The notes beneath the pieces are model-generated. The model ran no database searches. It was not told the origin of the DNA and saw only the letters and a list, made by a program, of their open reading frames with translations. A DNA stretch of 17,139 nt. It comes from an uncultured Deinococcales bacterium. GTDB taxonomy: Bacteria > Deinococcota > Deinococci > Deinococcales > JAAFIG01. The position numbers were made by a program, and so were the translations under genes. Shown here in pieces: positions 2,942 to 9,659 of the stretch (its first letter is position 1; each line of letters begins with the position of its first letter). The stretch lies in the NCBI GenBank assembly GCA_964247135.1, contig CAXTTL010000094.1, positions 1-17,139 on the forward strand, in the 5' to 3' direction.

Positions 2942-5900
2942 ATGAACACCTGCGCGTACTGCTTGACCCCAATTCCACCTCACGCCAGCAGTTGCGGGTC
3001 GTGCGGAATGCCCGTCGCTGGCGGACTGCATTTGAAAGCAGGAACGACGGTCGGGGCTGGGCGTTACCGTTTGGACGCCGCCCTTGGACGCGGCGGTTTT
3101 GGTCTGACCTACAGGGGCTTTGACCGTCAACAAAACCGTGTGGTCGCCATCAAAGAACTCTTCCTGGACGGTTCGGTGCGCCGTGAAACCAAGGTGATTC
3201 CACCCGGTAGCCTCAAACCAACGGACTTTGATGCAGCTCGGGTTTCGTTTTTGAACGAAGCCCGCACGATGGCAAGATTCTCGCACTCGAGCATCGTGGG
3301 TGTGCTGGACACGTTTGAAGAGAACAACACGGCGTACATGGTCATGGAATTTGTTGAGGGCGAAAGCCTGGGGGATCGTTTGATCCGCAGCAAAACCCTC
3401 GAGCCTGCCGAAGTCGAACGGATCGGCATTGCCGTGAGTGAGGGCTTGGCGATTGTTCACAGCGCGAATTTGCTGCACCGCGACATCAAACCCGACAACA
3501 TTTTGCTGCGCAACGACGGACGCGTGATCTTGATCGATTTTGGTTCGGCACGCGATTTTAGCCTCGGGCAGCAAGTCCAACACACGCGATTGGTCACGCC
3601 AGGTTATGCGCCCCTCGAGCAATACCAAAGCCAAGGACGTTTTGGACCGTACACCGATGTTTACGCGCTCGGGGCGACCCTGTACCACGCCCTGACGGGG
3701 GTTTTGCCAGCCTCGAGTTTGGACCGCGCGGCACTGAGTGTTTCCAAGGGCAACAAAGCCACGCTCGAGTCACCCAGAATCTTGCAACCCAGCGTGTCGG
3801 TGGCGCTCGAAAAAGCGATTTTGTGGGCGCTCGAGATTCGGATCGATGCGCGACCTCAGACGGCGTTGGCATTTCAGGAAGCCTTGCTGGGCAACAAACC
3901 CCGCAAGACGGCGCAAAAACCTGTGGCGGTCAATGTTCCGCTCAGTACGCCAAACCTTGATCTGGCAAAACAAAAACTCATGCTGCTCGAGGATGGTTTA
4001 AAACCCATTTCAAACGTTTGGATTTGTCCATCGTGCCGCACGGGTCAGATGCTCGAGGTGAAACCCTCTGACAACTGTCCAGTCTGTCAAAAACCTGGCA
4101 TGAAATTTCCCGATGCGGCGCAAAAACCGTGCTGCCCAGATTGTGCGCAGCCGAGTTTGGAAATGATGGTCAGTAGCCATTACTCGAGAAGCCATTTTTA
4201 CTTTTATCAACAACTGGGTTTAAACATCAACGAGATCGCGCCTGCCCAAACCCTCCAATGCCCAGCCTGCGAAAAAGGCGAGTTAAAACCGCCCAAACCC
4301 GTGACCAGCCTCATCTGTCCATCTTGCCGAGGTCGGACGCTCGAGAATCGCGTGCCGAACCGCCGACTCTGCCCGCATTGCCGCACCGGAAACCTCGAGG
4401 CGTTCAACACCGATCAGGCGTGCTGCCCGAATTGCAAGGTTGGACGCATCACGCAAACCAGCAAACGCAAATTTGTGTTCATACTCGAGCACCGCGCCAA
4501 TTGCGACCACTGCGACGCGACTTGGGACACGCAAAATTCACACTGGAAATTATTAACAGCCACGGGTGAACTGGCGGACCAAATTGGCTCGAGTCACACC
4601 CCAGAAACTTGGGAAGAGATGTCGGGACGTGAACGAACTGGCGTGGTCTGCAACCATTGTCACAGCGAATTTGACCAGCAAAACGATGGGCGTTTGAAAT
4701 TCGGTTACAGCCTCGAGAAAACCCCATTGCTGCACAAAACCATGACCGCGCTCGAGTGGGCAAAACTCGCGCACCGCATCGCGCCGCACCGTGGCACACA
4801 ACACTGCCCGGATTGCAGCTCCGAATTTGACCTCGACGCCGGCAACATGACCTTGCTCTCGAGTCCTTTATTGCGTGACCAAATCGGTCAAACCCATCCG
4901 CTCGAGGCTTGGAAACGACTGGCGTCGGGCAAACGCAGCATCAACGACGGGGTGCTGTGCGAAACTTGCAACGCCGAATGGGATTGGGTAGGCACCGCAA
5001 ACCTGGGCGAACGAATGCTGAAACTGATTCATGCTGGGCGCAGCCAAAGCCAACTGCCCTTGGGTTTTACGGTCAGCACCGATTACAGCGTCTTCAAAAA
5101 GGCTGGCAAAAACACTGGACTCGAGGGAATGGTCTGCAAAAATTGTGCCTCCGAATGGGACGAAACCGCGCCCAAAGTCTTCACGCAAACCAGGGTGCGC
5201 GGCGCAAAAATGCTGGCAGCCACGCCAAGCATGGGCATTGAACGCCTGCTGGCGCTGGGGCAATCAAAGGCAATGGGACGCAAAACCGCCAGCGTTCCAG
5301 GTCCAACCTGCCCCCACTGCGCCTCGGAATGGGTGGTGCAAGGACAAAACTGGGAACTCGTCTCGAGTTTCAAAAGCGCCCTGGTCGGAATGCAACTTCC
5401 AGCCGAGGCTTGGCGTTACCTGGCGGCGGGCAAACAACACGCCAACGCCGGCGTGAAATGTAACACTTGCGCCACCGAACTTGATCTTAAAAATTCGAGT
5501 TACACGCTTGGGAATGTGAGCCGCAGCAAAGACGATTGGATGCGTTTTGCGATTGGAAAACCACTTGCGGCTGATGTTGCGCAACTCAAACTCGAGGGTG
5601 AACAAGCATTTTTGAAAGCCATCGAAAATGCCGAATGGCAGCAAGTGACATCAGTTTTCCCACGGGTTTTGGGCAAAAACGAAAAAGTGTTGTTTGTGCT
5701 CGAGGCACTCCTTGGTCAAAAAGATGGCTTGGAGTACATCCCAGGAAGTTTAGGACAGGCTTGGTTTACAACCCAACGAATCTTGTTTGAAAATGGCAGT
5801 TTGATTCGAGATGTTGAGATTCTGATTGACAAACTTAATCACATCAATACCACTCACACGTCTTTTTACATTCAAGCAAATAATTACCAAACCCTTTGCC

Positions 5901-6064
5901 GAATTTGGCTCGAGCGCAAGGACCGCAAACGTCCAATCGTGTTGTTCTGCGGCAATTTCGACGTGACACTCTCAAGCGGCGCTGCCAAACTTGAAGTCAG
6001 CATCGGACCAAAGCAACTCGAGCAACTCCTGACAAACTTGCAATCTCGAGTCCTCAACCCGTAA
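2942..6064 (+). CDS. Hanks-type Ser/Thr protein kinase with N-terminal zinc ribbon, 14 C-terminal CxxC motifs and a PH-like C-terminus
   Basis: GRGGFG, VAIKE, HRDIKPDN, DFG, GYAPLE, DVYALG motifs; N-terminal CAYC...CGSC; 14 further CxxC; C-terminal LGKNEKVLF...GQAWFTTQRILF resembles bacterial PH/GRAM-like domains. No signal peptide or TM helix seen. Confidence 0.93.
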   Translation: MNTCAYCLTPIPPHASSCGSCGMPVAGGLHLKAGTTVGAGRYRLDAALGRGGFGLTYRGFDRQQNRVVAIKELFLDGSVRRETKVIPPGSLKPTDFDAARVSFLNEARTMARFSHSSIVGVLDTFEENNTAYMVMEFVEGESLGDRLIRSKTLEPAEVERIGIAVSEGLAIVHSANLLHRDIKPDNILLRNDGRVILIDFGSARDFSLGQQVQHTRLVTPGYAPLEQYQSQGRFGPYTDVYALGATLYHALTGVLPASSLDRAALSVSKGNKATLESPRILQPSVSVALEKAILWALEIRIDARPQTALAFQEALLGNKPRKTAQKPVAVNVPLSTPNLDLAKQKLMLLEDGLKPISNVWICPSCRTGQMLEVKPSDNCPVCQKPGMKFPDAAQKPCCPDCAQPSLEMMVSSHYSRSHFYFYQQLGLNINEIAPAQTLQCPACEKGELKPPKPVTSLICPSCRGRTLENRVPNRRLCPHCRTGNLEAFNTDQACCPNCKVGRITQTSKRKFVFILEHRANCDHCDATWDTQNSHWKLLTATGELADQIGSSHTPETWEEMSGRERTGVVCNHCHSEFDQQNDGRLKFGYSLEKTPLLHKTMTALEWAKLAHRIAPHRGTQHCPDCSSEFDLDAGNMTLLSSPLLRDQIGQTHPLEAWKRLASGKRSINDGVLCETCNAEWDWVGTANLGERMLKLIHAGRSQSQLPLGFTVSTDYSVFKKAGKNTGLEGMVCKNCASEWDETAPKVFTQTRVRGAKMLAATPSMGIERLLALGQSKAMGRKTASVPGPTCPHCASEWVVQGQNWELVSSFKSALVGMQLPAEAWRYLAAGKQHANAGVKCNTCATELDLKNSSYTLGNVSRSKDDWMRFAIGKPLAADVAQLKLEGEQAFLKAIENAEWQQVTSVFPRVLGKNEKVLFVLEALLGQKDGLEYIPGSLGQAWFTTQRILFENGSLIRDVEILIDKLNHINTTHTSFYIQANNYQTLCRIWLERKDRKRPIVLFCGNFDVTLSSGAAKLEVSIGPKQLEQLLTNLQSRVLNP
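4502..5560 (+). repeat. Seven tandem protein repeats of about 50-60 aa (last one shorter) inside the kinase CDS
   Basis: Unit: CxxC-x-[SAT]-[ET]-[WFL]-D ... [WLM]xL ... G.T/S...E.W..LA.GK ... G. Heads are CDHCDATWD, CNHCHSEFD, CPDCSSEFD, CETCNAEWD, CKNCASEWD, CPHCASEWV, CNTCATELD. Confidence 0.85.
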
Positions 6065-6090: not shown

Positions 6091-6882
6091 ATGATTTCAA
6101 TTGACCTTAAGGGAAAAGTAGCCCTGATCGCCGGCGTTCAAAACGAGTACAGCCTAGGCTGGGCGGCGGGCAAGAAACTCTTGGAGGCGGGCGCGACCTG
6201 TATTTTCTCGTTTCAAGGCGAACGCAACCTTCCCGCGCTCGAGAAGCTGACCGCACCCTACAAAGACCAAATTGCGTTTTTGGAAGTCTGCGATGTCAGC
6301 AAAGACGAAGACCTGACCAAATTGTTTGACCGCATCAAAACCGTTTGCGGCAAAATTGATTACCTGATGCACGCCATCGCGTTCACACCAAGGGCGAGCC
6401 AGGAAAATCCGTTTCTCGAGACGACCCGCAACGACTGGCAGATTGCGCTCGACATCAGCGCCTACAGCCTGGTGGCACTGACCCAACACGCCGCGCCCTT
6501 GATGGGTGAAGGCTCGAGCATCGTGTGCCTGTCGTATTACGCCGCCGAAAAAGTCGTGGCGCGATACAACGTCATGGGCGTCGCCAAAAGCGCCCTCGAA
6601 GCCAGCGCACGCTACCTGGCTTACGATTTGGGCATGAAAGGCATTCGGGTCAACGTCGTCTCGCCAGGACCGATGCGCACCGTCGCCGCCAAAAGTATTC
6701 CAGGTTTTTCGTTGATGTTTGAAAAAGCCGCCAAGGTCGCCGCGATGGGACGCAACGCCAGCTTTGAAGAGGTCGGGAACACCTGCCTGTACCTGTTCAG
6801 CCCACTCTCGAGCGGCACGACGGGCGAAACGATTTATGTCGATGCAGGTTACAGCATTATGGGCATGGCGATGGACAGTTGA
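6091..6882 (+). CDS. fabI: Enoyl-ACP reductase FabI
   Basis: LKGKVALIAGV.N..SLGW, CDVS, HAIAF, ISAYSL, YNVMGVAKSALE catalytic Y..M...K, GIRVNVVSPGP, TGETIYVDAG. Confidence 0.96.
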   Translation: MISIDLKGKVALIAGVQNEYSLGWAAGKKLLEAGATCIFSFQGERNLPALEKLTAPYKDQIAFLEVCDVSKDEDLTKLFDRIKTVCGKIDYLMHAIAFTPRASQENPFLETTRNDWQIALDISAYSLVALTQHAAPLMGEGSSIVCLSYYAAEKVVARYNVMGVAKSALEASARYLAYDLGMKGIRVNVVSPGPMRTVAAKSIPGFSLMFEKAAKVAAMGRNASFEEVGNTCLYLFSPLSSGTTGETIYVDAGYSIMGMAMDS

Positions 6883-6947
6883 GGGGAACTACTTCCCTCT
6901 CATCCCCGACCCGTCTTGGTTTCAAGATGCACCTGCGGGCGAAACCG

Positions 6948-6975
6948 CTTCTCTCCTCGGAGAGAAGGGAGTTTT
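6948..6975 (+). terminator. Putative intrinsic terminator of fabI, part of a REP-like palindrome
   Basis: CTTCTCTC-ctcg-GAGAGAAG 8-bp stem followed by ggagTTTT. Confidence 0.5.
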
Positions 6976-7032
6976 ATTGCTTTACACGTGCGGCTCGAGG
7001 AATTTTCACTGTCCCAAAGTGAAGTTGCCATG

Positions 7033-7066
7033 AAAAGAAAAAGCTCGAGATTTTAGATTCTCGAGC
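7033..7066 (-). terminator. Intrinsic terminator of the beta-barrel gene, built from two CTCGAG sites
   Basis: GCTCGAGA (7043-7050) / TCTCGAGC (7059-7066) stem; on the minus strand it is followed by TTTTTCTTTT. Confidence 0.75.
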
Positions 7067-7090
7067 CTCTTGTTTGATCTTGACTGTGGT

Positions 7091-7585
7091 TTAGATTTTG
7101 AAATCTGCACCGAGCGACAGCGTAAAAGCGCTGGCAGTGGCGTTGCCACCAAAGTACAAACGACCTGCCAAGTTAATGCCCAACGGTCCAAAAACCGTGT
7201 ACCTCGCACCACCGCCAAGATAAACGCTGGTGCTGCCCGTCGAGAAATCAAACAAACTGCCAGCCGTCAGACGCTCGAGTCCAGCTTCTGCACGGAAGCT
7301 GATAGGCAAGAATGGCACTGGAATGTCACGCAGCACCGCACCAACGCGGAAAAACGATTGGTTGTCGCCGCGCAGTGCAAAGGGCGTGACTTCGACACCG
7401 ATGGTTCCCAGACCGAGCGGCAGGTTGTAACCCGCACCGACGTGCAGGCTGGCGTAAATGCCCGCGCCGCCCGAGAACGGCAGTTCGGCGTTGACACCGC
7501 CCCAAATGCTTTGCGCACCGGCGACGGGGAACAGGGCGATGATCAGCATCGGGATCAATCTTTTGAGCCATTGTTGTAATTTCAT
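7091..7585 (-). CDS. Small outer-membrane beta-barrel protein (about 8 strands) with Sec signal peptide
   Basis: GGAGG SD 5 nt upstream; MKLQQWLKRLIPMLIIALFPVAGA|Q signal peptide; alternating Gly/aromatic strands (VYLGGGARYT, LSLGADFKI C-terminus). Confidence 0.75.
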   Translation of the reverse strand: MKLQQWLKRLIPMLIIALFPVAGAQSIWGGVNAELPFSGGAGIYASLHVGAGYNLPLGLGTIGVEVTPFALRGDNQSFFRVGAVLRDIPVPFLPISFRAEAGLERLTAGSLFDFSTGSTSVYLGGGARYTVFGPLGINLAGRLYFGGNATASAFTLSLGADFKI

Positions 7586-7697
7586 AAAAACCTCCAGCCT
7601 GCACTATGACATCCAAATTGGCTTTTCGGGTGATAAATCCCGCGTCAGAATGAACGCCAATGCCCGAGAAGCGCTTCCAACTGCGGGTTAGCCTGTT

Positions 7698-8774
7698 GTG
7701 TTGTCCGTGAATTCAGTGCAAATTAAACCCATGAATGCTCGAGCTTTGGTCGATGTGATCGTGGTGGGGGCTGGGCTGGCGGGTTTGGCGGCGGCTCGAG
7801 ATTTGCAAAACGCGGGTTTTGGTGTCTTGGTGCTCGAGAAATCCCGTGGCGTTGGCGGGCGGTGCGCGACCAAACGCCTTGCGGTTGGCGATGGCGTGGC
7901 GCGGGTCGATCATGGTGCGCAGTTTTTCACGGTTCGCGGTGAACGGCTGCAAAAACTGGTGATTCAACTCGAGTCTTCGGGTGTGGTTCAAGCCTGGACT
8001 CGTGGCTTTCCCAAATTGACTGTAAGGGGTCTGGAGCCTCGAGCGGCGGGTCATTCGCGTTACAAGTGCAAAGACGGCATGAACGCCCTGGCAAAAGCCT
8101 TTGTGGAAGATGCTGCGGGTTTGCCGCTCGAGGTTGTGCCCAATGCTTTGGTCAGCGCGGTTTTTCCAAGTCATTTGGGTTGGAGCGCGGTGCTCGAGAA
8201 TGGCGAAATTTACCAAGCTCGAGGTTTGATCGTGAACGCGCCCGCGCCGCAAGCCCTGGCACTGACCCGCTCGAGTTTGCAAGCACAGACCCTTCAAGCG
8301 CTCGAAGCTGTGCAATTTAACCCCTGCTGGGCGTTGATGGTGGCGCTCGAGGAAAGCCCCGATATTGACTGGCAAGGACTCGAGATTGAACACGAAATGC
8401 TGGAATGGGCGGCGCTCGACTCGAGCAAACGCGAGGCTGGCAGCCCACCGACATTGGTGCTTCACGCCACACCCGCCTGGAGTCAAACCCACCTCGAGCA
8501 AAGCCCAGAAACCGTGGCGGCACTGATGCTCCAGGAGGCAAAGAAATTGTTGGGCGACTGGGTGAAACCCGCTGCCATGCTGGCGCACCGTTGGCGTTAC
8601 GCCAAGCCGAGCATCACGCACCCAGAACTGTTCCTGGCACAAGACAACCTGGTGTTTTGCGGCGATTGGTGTACGACTAACCATAGCCGCATCGAAGCCG
8701 CGATCATGAGTGGTTGGAGTGCCGCCAGTTACTTGCTCGAGCAACTACAAGAAAAAACTCATCTTGTGCTTTAA
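7698..8774 (+). CDS. Renalase-like NAD(P)/FAD-dependent oxidoreductase (COG3380-like)
   Basis: VVGAGLAG, EKSRGVGGR, DHGAQFFT, HRWRYA, CGDW motifs. Start is uncertain (7698, 7701 or 7731). Confidence 0.9.
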   Translation: MLSVNSVQIKPMNARALVDVIVVGAGLAGLAAARDLQNAGFGVLVLEKSRGVGGRCATKRLAVGDGVARVDHGAQFFTVRGERLQKLVIQLESSGVVQAWTRGFPKLTVRGLEPRAAGHSRYKCKDGMNALAKAFVEDAAGLPLEVVPNALVSAVFPSHLGWSAVLENGEIYQARGLIVNAPAPQALALTRSSLQAQTLQALEAVQFNPCWALMVALEESPDIDWQGLEIEHEMLEWAALDSSKREAGSPPTLVLHATPAWSQTHLEQSPETVAALMLQEAKKLLGDWVKPAAMLAHRWRYAKPSITHPELFLAQDNLVFCGDWCTTNHSRIEAAIMSGWSAASYLLEQLQEKTHLVL

Positions 8775-8777
8775 CCT
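8772..8777 (+). promoter_or_regulatory. Putative -10 (TAACCT) of a leaderless hydrolase transcript, overlapping the upstream stop codon
   Basis: TAACCT, then 6 nt, then ATG 8784; no SD sequence. Confidence 0.55.
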
Positions 8778-8783
8778 GTAACC

Positions 8784-9659
8784 ATGAGCCTCGAGCGAAA
8801 CTGGCTGAACATCATTCAGCGTCAAAGCGAAAAAAGTTTGTTACGCCTTCGTCGCGCACCGCTTGACCTGATCAACACCGTGGCATCAAGCAAAAATTTT
8901 AAACTCTTTAAAAACCTCGAATACGGTGCGCTCGAGCGGCAAAAACTGGACTTGTACATTCCAAGGCGTGTCCCGATGGCGCCACTGGTGATTTTTGTTC
9001 ACGGCGGATACTGGCACGGCGGCAGCAAAGACGAGTACGCCTTTCTGGCGGAAACCCTCAACCTCGAGGGGTTTGCCGTGGCGACCGTCAATTACCGCCT
9101 CGCGCCTGGGGCAACCTTCCCAACTTGGATTCGGGATGTAGGACTGGCATTGCGTTGGTTGCGTCGTCACGCCGATGATTACCATTACCAAGCCGAAAAA
9201 GTGGGTTTGATTGGTCACTCGAGCGGCGCTCACATCACCAGTTTGCTGGCGCTCGATGCGCGACATCTGACGGGTGTGGGCTTGACCAGGGATGTGCTGA
9301 GTGCGGTGGTGTGCCTGTCTGGACCCTATGATTTTTTTGATTTCATATTGACCGACACCAAAATCCAAGCCGCCTTCGGCGACCCGCTGCACTGGTCGGA
9401 CACCCAACCCGTGCGCTTCGCCGACGGTACAAACCCGCCCATGCTCTTGATGCACGGCGAAAAAGACACGCTGGTCAGTCCGCTCAACACGCCGGCGCTC
9501 GAGAAAGCCTTGCTTGCCGTGGGCGGCAATGTCAAAGCCGTGATGTTTGAAAAACTCGATCACTTCACGATGCTGGGCGCGTTTTCCAAGATTGGGCGTT
9601 GGCTCGAGCCTCGCGTGCTGCCGACGGTGACAAGTTTTTTGAAGCTAAACCTTGATTAA
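8784..9659 (+). CDS. Alpha/beta hydrolase (HSL-like esterase / arylformamidase-like)
   Basis: LDLYIP, FVHGGYW oxyanion motif, NYRLAP, GHSSG nucleophile elbow, HGEKD, LDH catalytic His. Confidence 0.9.
   Translation: MSLERNWLNIIQRQSEKSLLRLRRAPLDLINTVASSKNFKLFKNLEYGALERQKLDLYIPRRVPMAPLVIFVHGGYWHGGSKDEYAFLAETLNLEGFAVATVNYRLAPGATFPTWIRDVGLALRWLRRHADDYHYQAEKVGLIGHSSGAHITSLLALDARHLTGVGLTRDVLSAVVCLSGPYDFFDFILTDTKIQAAFGDPLHWSDTQPVRFADGTNPPMLLMHGEKDTLVSPLNTPALEKALLAVGGNVKAVMFEKLDHFTMLGAFSKIGRWLEPRVLPTVTSFLKLNLD

Follow-up and report, generated by a model that had tools for sequence, protein, structure and literature searches.

The locus described here raises the question of how fourteen CxxC knuckles in the tail of a single protein kinase are sorted into metal sites. 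It lies in a stretch of 17,139 nucleotides (nt) from an uncultured Deinococcales bacterium (GenBank assembly GCA_964247135.1, contig CAXTTL010000094.1, forward strand), hereafter the window, and consists of one open reading frame (ORF) of 1040 amino acids (aa). Zinc ribbons are among the commonest small protein domains, and arrays of them are normally viewed as beads on a string. An earlier note on this DNA had instead proposed that seven first-class knuckles (A1-A7) pair with seven second-class knuckles (B1-B7) in nested order. Motif counts in homologues, correlated cysteine loss, residue coupling, a split-chain structure prediction and structural matches that bridge the two arrays all support nested over sequential pairing. 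Taken together, models and alignments indicate that the topology is probably nested, with A7-B1 as the innermost unit and A1-B7 as the outermost.

Two knuckle arrays in the kinase tail

A scan of the translation finds exactly 16 CxxC motifs in the ORF, two of which, at aa 4 and 18, belong to an N-terminal ribbon. The A-array comprises seven CPxC knuckles at aa 362, 379, 398, 440, 459, 477 and 495 (nt 4025-4435), with spacings of 17, 19, 42, 19, 18 and 18. B1 follows A7 at a spacing of 26 and opens the B-array of seven CxxC-x-[SAT]-[ET]-[WFL] knuckles at aa 521, 570, 622, 673, 732, 790 and 840 (nt 4502-5470), spaced 49, 52, 51, 59, 58 and 50 apart, each heading a repeat. The seven-then-seven arrangement described in the earlier note is thus present, including all of its quoted nine-residue strings; the A spacing that it gave as mostly 17-19 aa has a single exception, 42, and the B repeats that it put at 50-60 aa measure 49-59 aa.

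Cysteines outside the 16 motifs are limited to C397, C494, C986 and C1003. Two cysteines are kept at all 14 array positions in 14 of the 16 aligned homologues that share the seven-plus-seven (7+7) form, down to ~31-38% identity, and because of this conservation in the alignment the array of 14 knuckles is not due to chance. The exceptions are P0016, in which B1 reads C-x-C, and P0019, in which A1 lacks the second cysteine.

AlphaFold2 places helices at both ends of the array, as the earlier note had expected (Table 1). The same note had set the long insertion between A3 and A4 opposite the second array, and in the split-chain model described below this insertion does contact the B-array, through tail residues 79-101. 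It is absent in four of the five distant 7+7 homologues displayed (P0013, P0014, P0016 and P0017), the fifth, P0019, having one. The hairpin between A7 and B1 has a net charge of +5. The loops entering B2-B7 (window 4625-5458) repeat a basic-x-x-Ser/Thr pattern (GRERT, HRGT, GKRS, GKNT, GRKT), which could be structural or could provide repeated phosphorylation sites.

Structure prediction pairs the two arrays

AlphaFold2 modelling of aa 335-1040 with 145 aligned rows gave a mean predicted local distance difference test score (pLDDT) of 92.3, and 570 of 706 residues reach at least 90. Residues of this tail are numbered as aa minus 334. In the model, a short strand follows each A knuckle, and each B repeat has a strand leading into its knuckle, a hairpin after it and then a helix.

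A split-chain ESMFold2 test offered tail 226-566 (B2-B7) and tail 21-158 (A1-A6) as separate chains, with A7-B1 omitted. The two chains associate with scores of 0.67, 0.66 and 0.67, against 0.00 for the best of three controls; the score mark is met by 58 of 80 solved complexes and by 2 of 110 mismatched pairs, and is rough here since a custom alignment was used. Runs share at least 96% of their contacts, with a partner pLDDT of 86 or more. Among the contacts of lowest error are cysteine-cysteine contacts for A6-B2, A4-B4, A3-B5 and A2-B6 (Table 1), which bear on the earlier note's question of which motifs meet in a fold prediction. Strands pair between the residues after each A knuckle and the residues before its partner B knuckle. 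The A1, A5, B3 and B7 knuckles all appear in the interface list, and by elimination the model would pair A1 with B7 and A5 with B3. Both chains are halves of one protein, but a pass from model memory is unlikely because no similar complex has been solved, as far as the searches show.

Pairing in trans in silico also fits an intermolecular zipper, in which the A-array of one chain would pair with a second chain's B-array. The result would be a domain-swapped dimer or filament that unites two kinases for trans-autophosphorylation. The motif counts, cysteine losses and couplings presented below agree with intrachain and interchain pairing alike. However, only 26 aa separate A7 from B1, and AlphaFold2 joins them in one contiguous ribbon that includes a long beta-hairpin, in favour of a turn within the chain. 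The monomer models are also confident, and the zipper between chains is given only a slim chance.

Modelling of the core (aa 433-731, A4-A7 plus B1-B4, 129 rows) gave a pLDDT of 86.7 and a predicted template modelling score (pTM) of 0.78, with high confidence through the B4 knuckle and low confidence beyond, where partner segments are missing. When the core model was compared with 48,161 chains by VIA-align, none reached Z 5. Among the 50 best listed matches, 35 lie on residues 58-130, the contiguous A7-B1 unit, led by 4aay_B (Z 4.3, root-mean-square deviation (rmsd) 2.0 Å, 43 residues), in agreement with the earlier view of a normal ribbon at the tip. The other 15 of the 50 reach from residues 41-50 to 165-182 yet align only 38-60 residues: they take in the A6 knuckle at one end and the hairpin and helix of B2 at the other, and bypass A7-B1. 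Because these matches bridge A6 and B2 while leaving out A7-B1, A6 and B2 are one compact unit in the core model as well. Six of the 15 are Rieske-type metal-binding subdomains, such as 9rk4_A (Z 3.5, rmsd 1.8 Å, 38 residues).

These matches bear on a different reading of the metal, in which the Cys4 sites would hold iron in rubredoxin-like fashion and form a chain of redox centres. CPxC plus CxxC is also the rubredoxin pattern, the best listed single-unit structural matches are iron-sulfur (Rieske) subdomains at Z 3.4-4.3, and a search of PDB sequences with the tail gave a weak rubredoxin-2 match at E 0.84. Yet all of these matches are weak, zinc ribbons share the knuckle geometry, topoisomerase I zinc ribbons are matched as well, and the glycine that follows the second cysteine of rubredoxin knuckles is absent in the array. 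Iron at these sites is considered very improbable.

Other searches returned little for the rod, as the paired arrays are called below. The PDB sequence search gave at best E 0.35 and the rubredoxin-2 match just mentioned, Foldseek against PDB with the core model had no match at E ≤0.001, and the best ESM Atlas score, 0.80, is below the informative level. No solved chain matching more than one rod unit was found by PDB sequence search, Foldseek or VIA-align; in VIA-align with the whole tail, the listed matches are dominated by the C-terminal domain, so the rod was barely probed there.

Motif numbers change in step across homologues

A word-based search yielded twelve relatives, every one of them 7+7; 11 share 70-82% identity and the last shares 32%. 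With aa 335-1040 as query, a HMMER scan found 163 proteins at E ≤0.001, of which 120 reach E ≤1e-10, among 1.84 billion representatives. Matches P0013-P0019 (33-39% identity) are likewise 7+7, and most others are kinases of ~720 aa that align just to query aa 438-684. These shorter relatives carry four close CPxC motifs (spacings 18, 18 and 20) followed by four wide CxxC motifs (24, ~48, ~50 and 56), a 4+4 form.

With motif classes counted by spacing, the 156 proteins that have any motif include 93 of the 4+4 form and 15 of the 7+7 form. The same counts, 93 and 15, hold among the 127 homologues of at least 640 aa, together with three 3+3 proteins, and the remaining 16 are counting artefacts that stem from insertions, truncations or lost motifs. 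None of these 127 is a 5+5 or 6+6 form. Apparent 4+3 relatives retain two cysteines at altered spacing (C-x-C, C-x3-C or C-x4-C). The linkage between the two motif classes that the earlier note had proposed to look for is therefore seen, as A and B numbers match at 4+4 or 7+7.

By source name, the 7+7 forms belong to Deinococcales, with five records from metagenome-assembled genomes (MAGs) plus Deinobacterium chartae (P0017), and the 4+4 forms to Armatimonadota (Fimbriimonadales, Abditibacteriaceae). In a survey of Deinococcota with the core as query (E ≤1e-5), two of 201 genomes match, the source itself (G000) and G178; these genomes are a sample, so absence elsewhere does not follow.

When the repeats are compared, the best-scoring counterpart of B4-B7 in 4+4 proteins is the final repeat, with mean scores of 44-53. 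This resemblance suggests that the array grew by gaining units at the hairpin's open end, although the shortness of the A knuckles prevents confirmation from that array. Four proteins of ~440-450 aa (P0046, P0163, P0050 and P0093) carry a 4+4 array, start ~24 aa before the first A knuckle and have no kinase. P0046 has no Pfam match, and the members of its cluster lie on contigs of up to 16.5 kb. Either these proteins are rods that stand alone, or their gene calls may have been split.

Cysteine loss and coupling follow the nested register

Cysteine loss was compared by one-sided Fisher tests in 110 full-length 4+4 rows, with knuckles named a1-a4 and b1-b4. Knuckles a1 and b4 are lost together in four rows, a1 by itself in none and b4 by itself in one (p 8.7e-07). 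For a4 and b1, two rows lack both, one lacks a4 only and one b1 only (p 0.0015), and for a2 and b3 the counts are one, two and one (p 0.054); a3 is never lost. Among 18 other knuckle combinations, 16 have no double loss and two have one row each, from P0160 (doubtful alignment) and P0161 (apparently C-terminally truncated). P0128 (590 aa), which is not in this set, lacks the knuckles of two such pairs, a1-b4 and a4-b1. The rows share ancestry and no kinship correction was applied, so the p-values overstate the case; even given this relatedness, three different pairs of lost knuckles in the alignment follow the nested register.

Mean-field direct-coupling analysis (DCA) used the same rows, with an effective number of 110 sequences over 397 columns and hence little power. 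At a threshold of the 99.5th percentile, ~0.5% of pairs are expected above it in each block. The antiparallel blocks a2-b3 (17/1008 pairs), a4-b2 (10/735), a1-b4 (8/954) and a4-b1 (7/600) are enriched, whereas the same-index blocks a1-b1 (1/720), a2-b2 (4/882), a3-b3 (2/1064) and a4-b4 (2/795) are at or below chance. The strongest block, a2-b3, is homologous to A5-B3. The 60 top pairs include C313-C546 (a1-b4) and C369-C393 (a4-b1). On the covariation analysis that the earlier note had named as a check, coupling and cysteine loss in the 4+4 rows thus follow nested rather than sequential pairing, with a3-b2 excepted.

To our knowledge, known tandem zinc ribbons pair sequentially. On that pattern the tail would form the tandem ribbons A1-A2, A3-A4, A5-A6, A7-B1, B2-B3, B4-B5 and B6-B7. 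The 17-19 aa spacing of the A knuckles is typical of ordinary zinc ribbons, and even totals of 14 or 8 fit. But homologous knuckles would then have to pair differently in 4+4 and 7+7 proteins, the observed losses cross the arrays (a1/b4 and a4/b1) while the neighbours a1 and a2 are co-lost in none of the 110 rows, and the A half binds the B half with cysteine-cysteine contacts (0.67, against 0.00 for controls). Sequential pairing is regarded as highly unlikely.

Several points weigh against nested pairing. The whole-tail AlphaFold2 model has a pTM of 0.56, which makes its long-range geometry uncertain, and A1-B7 and A5-B3 rest on interface residue lists, without listed cysteine-cysteine contacts. 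Single cysteine losses also occur, at b1 in P0113, a2 in P0116 and P0155, and b2 in P0044, and the DCA block a3-b2 (5/931) is near chance. Structure predictors and DCA draw on the same alignments and are not mutually independent. Finally, the family occurs in three distinct gene contexts (the window, G178 and L011) that differ and give no clue to function, and because they differ no function is drawn from gene context.

A putative metal-stapled hairpin

Under nested pairing, the tail of this soluble Hanks-type kinase would be a hairpin of seven composite zinc ribbons. Each A segment would give one CPxC knuckle and one strand, and each long B repeat, besides the second CxxC knuckle, would give a beta-hairpin and a helix. 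The chain would run outward via A1-A7, turn at the contiguous ribbon A7-B1 and run back via B2-B7, pairing A6-B2, A5-B3, A4-B4, A3-B5, A2-B6 and A1-B7. This would create seven Cys4 sites, presumably zinc, in addition to one in the N-terminal ribbon. Since the chain doubles back, the topology would place both flanking helices and the C-terminal PH-like domain at the base of the hairpin near the kinase. The metal would then be zinc, the hairpin elongated and rigid, and the PH-like domain held beside the kinase.

Tentatively, and with the chances rather against it, such a hairpin might act as a metal-stapled stalk or clasp of fixed length, four or seven units, that holds a fast-evolving PH-like input or targeting domain by the kinase and offers a long conserved surface to partners.

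The same topology could alternatively serve as a thiol-labile or zinc-labile switch, in which oxidation or zinc loss would unzip the open end, part the PH-like domain from the kinase and alter activity. Zinc-thiolate redox switches include Hsp33, RsrA and the rubredoxin domain of PknG. The 28 paired cysteines in a cytoplasmic protein would suit such a role, as would the modelled topology, in which kinase and PH-like domain both join the hairpin at its open end, and the oxidative-stress biology of the host lineage Deinococcales. Nothing in the analysis bears on the switch directly, however; structural zinc ribbons are usually inert, and the named 4+4 relatives are Armatimonadota, a group that we do not associate with oxidative-stress biology. 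A labile switch is judged unlikely. An improbable but specific version is a graded, reversible zinc-thiolate zipper, in which oxidants or zinc shortage would open ribbons singly from the open end and, step by step, release the flanking helices and the PH-like domain from the kinase. Redox or metal status would thereby be turned into kinase output, with the number of units (4 or 7) as the threshold. As a speculation from sequence, the recurring G-[KR]-x-x-[ST] loops that precede the B knuckles might be autophosphorylation sites that recruit FHA proteins like the one beside the G178 kinase.

A variable PH-like domain at the C-terminus

VIA-align of the AlphaFold2 model gives the C-terminal domain best matches of 5yqr_A (Z 10.4, rmsd 2.8 Å over 104 residues) and 1lw3_A (Z 9.6). 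The whole-tail search returned 24 chains at Z ≥8, and the best 50 listed matches are mostly PH-like folds by title (PH, PTB, GRAM, FERM lobes and the like). The model has strands over tail 582-687 and then a helix over 689-704, in keeping with a seven-stranded sandwich with a C-terminal helix cap. Pfam, with GRAM and bPH included, reports no family for aa 876-1040 at E up to 10.

Identity among close homologues falls to 57% in the PH-like domain, whereas the two arrays keep 80-83%. Conservation thus resides in the rod, while the PH-like domain varies and is the fastest-evolving part of the protein. Close relatives share ~84% identity over the kinase gene as a whole, which makes it less conserved than the neighbouring genes (~82-97%).

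N-terminal ribbon, kinase domain and gene neighbourhood

The database gene call for this protein (P0002, 1018 aa) begins 22 aa downstream at Met23, so the N-terminal CxxC-x10-CxxC ribbon (window 2942-3007) is lost from it. Homologue calls of 1001-1034 aa (P0004-P0006 and P0008-P0010) also lack the ribbon, and others keep it. It is conserved where the calls cover the N-terminus (P0003, P0007, P0011, P0013, P0014 and P0016-P0019).

The kinase domain scores 144.5 bits against a Pfam cut-off of 31.7 (E 5.4e-42). Protein kinases are recognised by a glycine-rich loop, the VAIK lysine and the HRD..K..N, DFG and APE motifs. Because the usual catalytic strings are present in the translation (LGRGGFG, VAIKEL, HRDIKPDN, DFG and APLE), the kinase looks active. 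No Pfam or NCBIfam model covers anything beyond aa 326, here or in relatives, in line with the earlier remark that the tail belongs to no named family.

Table 1. Features of the kinase ORF and of the loci compared with it; positions refer to the window unless a locus is named.
Feature	Position	Strand	Basis or remark
Whole ORF, 1040 aa	2942..6064	+	Translation; N-terminal ribbon, kinase, putative zinc hairpin and PH-like domain in order
N-terminal ordinary zinc ribbon CAYC-x10-CGSC (aa 4-21)	2951..3004	+	CxxC scan
Hanks-type Ser/Thr protein kinase domain (aa 42-313)	3065..3880	+	Pfam Pkinase PF00069
Helix before array (aa 337-353)	3950..4000	+	AlphaFold2 DSSP helix, tail residues 3-19
A1 knuckle CPSC (aa 362-365)	4025..4036	+	Predicted partner B7, by elimination; tail 26-50 and 502-509 in modelled interface
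A2 knuckle CPVC (aa 379-382)	4076..4087	+	Predicted partner B6; tail C45-C456 contact, expected error 0.7 Å
A3 knuckle CPDC (aa 398-401)	4133..4144	+	Predicted partner B5; tail C64-C398 contact, expected error 0.6 Å
A3-A4 insertion (aa 402-439), helix aa 416-424	4145..4258	+	CxxC scan and AlphaFold2
A4 knuckle CPAC (aa 440-443)	4259..4270	+	Predicted partner B4; tail C106-C339 contact, expected error 0.6 Å
A5 knuckle CPSC (aa 459-462)	4316..4327	+	Probable partner B3; tail 123-131 and 283-291 in interface
A6 knuckle CPHC (aa 477-480)	4370..4381	+	Predicted partner B2; tail C143-C236 contact, expected error 0.6 Å
A7 knuckle CPNC (aa 495-498)	4424..4435	+	Predicted partner B1; contiguous ribbon at tip
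Tip beta-hairpin A7-B1 (aa 499-520)	4436..4501	+	AlphaFold2 strands, tail 168-177 and 180-187
B1 knuckle CDHC (aa 521-524)	4502..4513	+	CxxC scan
B2 knuckle CNHC (aa 570-573)	4649..4660	+	CxxC scan and split-chain model
B3 knuckle CPDC (aa 622-625)	4805..4816	+	CxxC scan and split-chain model
B4 knuckle CETC (aa 673-676)	4958..4969	+	CxxC scan and split-chain model
B5 knuckle CKNC (aa 732-735)	5135..5146	+	CxxC scan and split-chain model
B6 knuckle CPHC (aa 790-793)	5309..5320	+	CxxC scan and split-chain model
B7 knuckle CNTC (aa 840-843)	5459..5470	+	CxxC scan and split-chain model
Helix after array (aa 876-895)	5567..5626	+	AlphaFold2 helix, tail residues 542-561
C-terminal PH-like (GRAM-like) domain (aa 900-1040)	5639..6061	+	VIA-align of AlphaFold2 model
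FabI-type enoyl-acyl carrier protein reductase	6091-6882	kinase strand	27 nt past kinase stop; Pfam adh_short_C2, E 1e-77
G178 PRTase_2/TRSP	L010 3822-4994
G178 Ter-operon-type ATP-grasp	L010 4991-6046
G178 7+7 kinase	L010 (G178:C7:27000-42000) 6335-9379	minus	Flanked by VWA-FHA and Ter-type genes
G178 VWA plus FHA-like protein	L010 9467-11299		Adjoins 7+7 kinase
G178 DEAD-box helicase	L010 11329-12759		Beyond VWA-FHA gene

Pfam assigns the two ORFs upstream of the kinase to DUF1003 and HlyIII; of the two downstream, one is FabI and the other has no match. A search with an alignment of close homologues returned five close Deinococcales loci. The kinase-FabI arrangement is kept in all three whose flank reaches (L001-L003), and close relatives keep the synteny of the window.

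The context in G178 (L010 3822-12759) resembles Ter/TerY modules, and no such context occurs in this window. In a metagenome scan whose patterns were kinase motifs, three of the 80 loci kept (L011-L013) reach the tail, and flanks are available for L011 alone. There, at L011 6989-10085 on a 1-Mb metagenome contig, a 4+4 kinase of the family is followed by a HEAT-repeat protein, and a divergent BTAD/AAA/TPR regulator lies upstream, forming a third, unrelated context.

Significance

The predicted nested array is a new form of zinc-ribbon architecture, with 7+7 units in Deinococcales and 4+4 in Armatimonadota. Ribbon halves are encoded in separate arrays that apparently zip together antiparallel, so that four or seven units make up a metal-stapled hairpin. 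If this is true, it would represent a new way of building a long, rigid, metal-dependent protein element, and an unannotated kinase-associated module present in more than 100 sequence clusters (the 120 proteins at E ≤1e-10). It would also offer a natural model for split metal sites evolving in step, because counts jump from 4+4 to 7+7, and it would mean that counting CxxC pairs in sequence order can misassign metal sites. Deinobacterium chartae (P0017), the one named 7+7 record that is not a MAG, may make experiments practical.

Comparison with known systems

A literature search, with subscription journals and supplements outside its reach, found no description of such a nested array. Each unit of the modelled tail seems to resemble a classical zinc ribbon in being a two-knuckle Cys4 site with a small sheet. 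Classical examples are TFIIS, TFIIB and the C-terminal ribbons of topoisomerase I, and structural matches to A7-B1 include topoisomerase I ribbons (9gda_F, Z 3.3; 1yua, Z 3.0). The knuckles of a classical ribbon are contiguous, which in the tail array applies to A7-B1 alone (26 aa). Unlike the classical case, the remaining six pairs would have knuckles 93-478 residues apart, with the inner units nested between them.

Among kinases, the TerY-P triad study (PMC11090510) describes a bacterial Ser/Thr kinase whose C-terminus carries one zinc ribbon. The likeness lies in a bacterial Ser/Thr kinase with C-terminal zinc-ribbon material, and the difference in one ribbon there against a nested array plus a PH-like domain here. 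The G178 locus adds a further likeness, since its 7+7 kinase stands beside a VWA-FHA gene and near Ter-associated ATP-grasp and PRTase_2 genes. No TerY-like VWA or PP2C gene occurs among the two ORFs on each side of the window kinase, and no PP2C among the five ORFs scanned in G178 or in the other loci examined. In its modelled fold, the C-terminal 140 aa resembles GRAM/myotubularin-type PH-like domains, from which it differs in having no sequence-family match.

In the DnaJ cysteine-rich domain, one zinc is bound jointly by motifs 1 and 4 and the other by motifs 2 and 3, which produces an extended hairpin. The tail array resembles DnaJ (Hsp40 type I) and DnaJ-like zinc-finger proteins in carrying multiple CxxC knuckles per chain with nested pairing, a pattern seen here in silico and in correlated cysteine loss. 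The DnaJ zinc-binding domain is formed by four CXXCXGXG motifs (PMC5818400). DnaJ has two zinc sites and motifs of one kind (CXXCXGXG), whereas the tail array would have four or seven sites and has two motif classes, CPxCxxGx[LMI] and CxxCx[SAT][ET][WFL], the second of which heads a ~50-aa repeat with its own hairpin and helix. The contexts also differ, a J-domain chaperone in one case and a kinase with a PH-like domain in the other. Pfam DnaJ_CXXCXGXG (PF00684) has no match in the ORF at E up to 1, and no DnaJ cysteine-rich domain is among the best 50 VIA-align matches to the core, which does not exclude likeness. Because the motifs differ and no profile matches, the tail array is not a member of the DnaJ cysteine-rich domain, which is nevertheless the nearest known principle for a chain that pairs its knuckles from the outside in.

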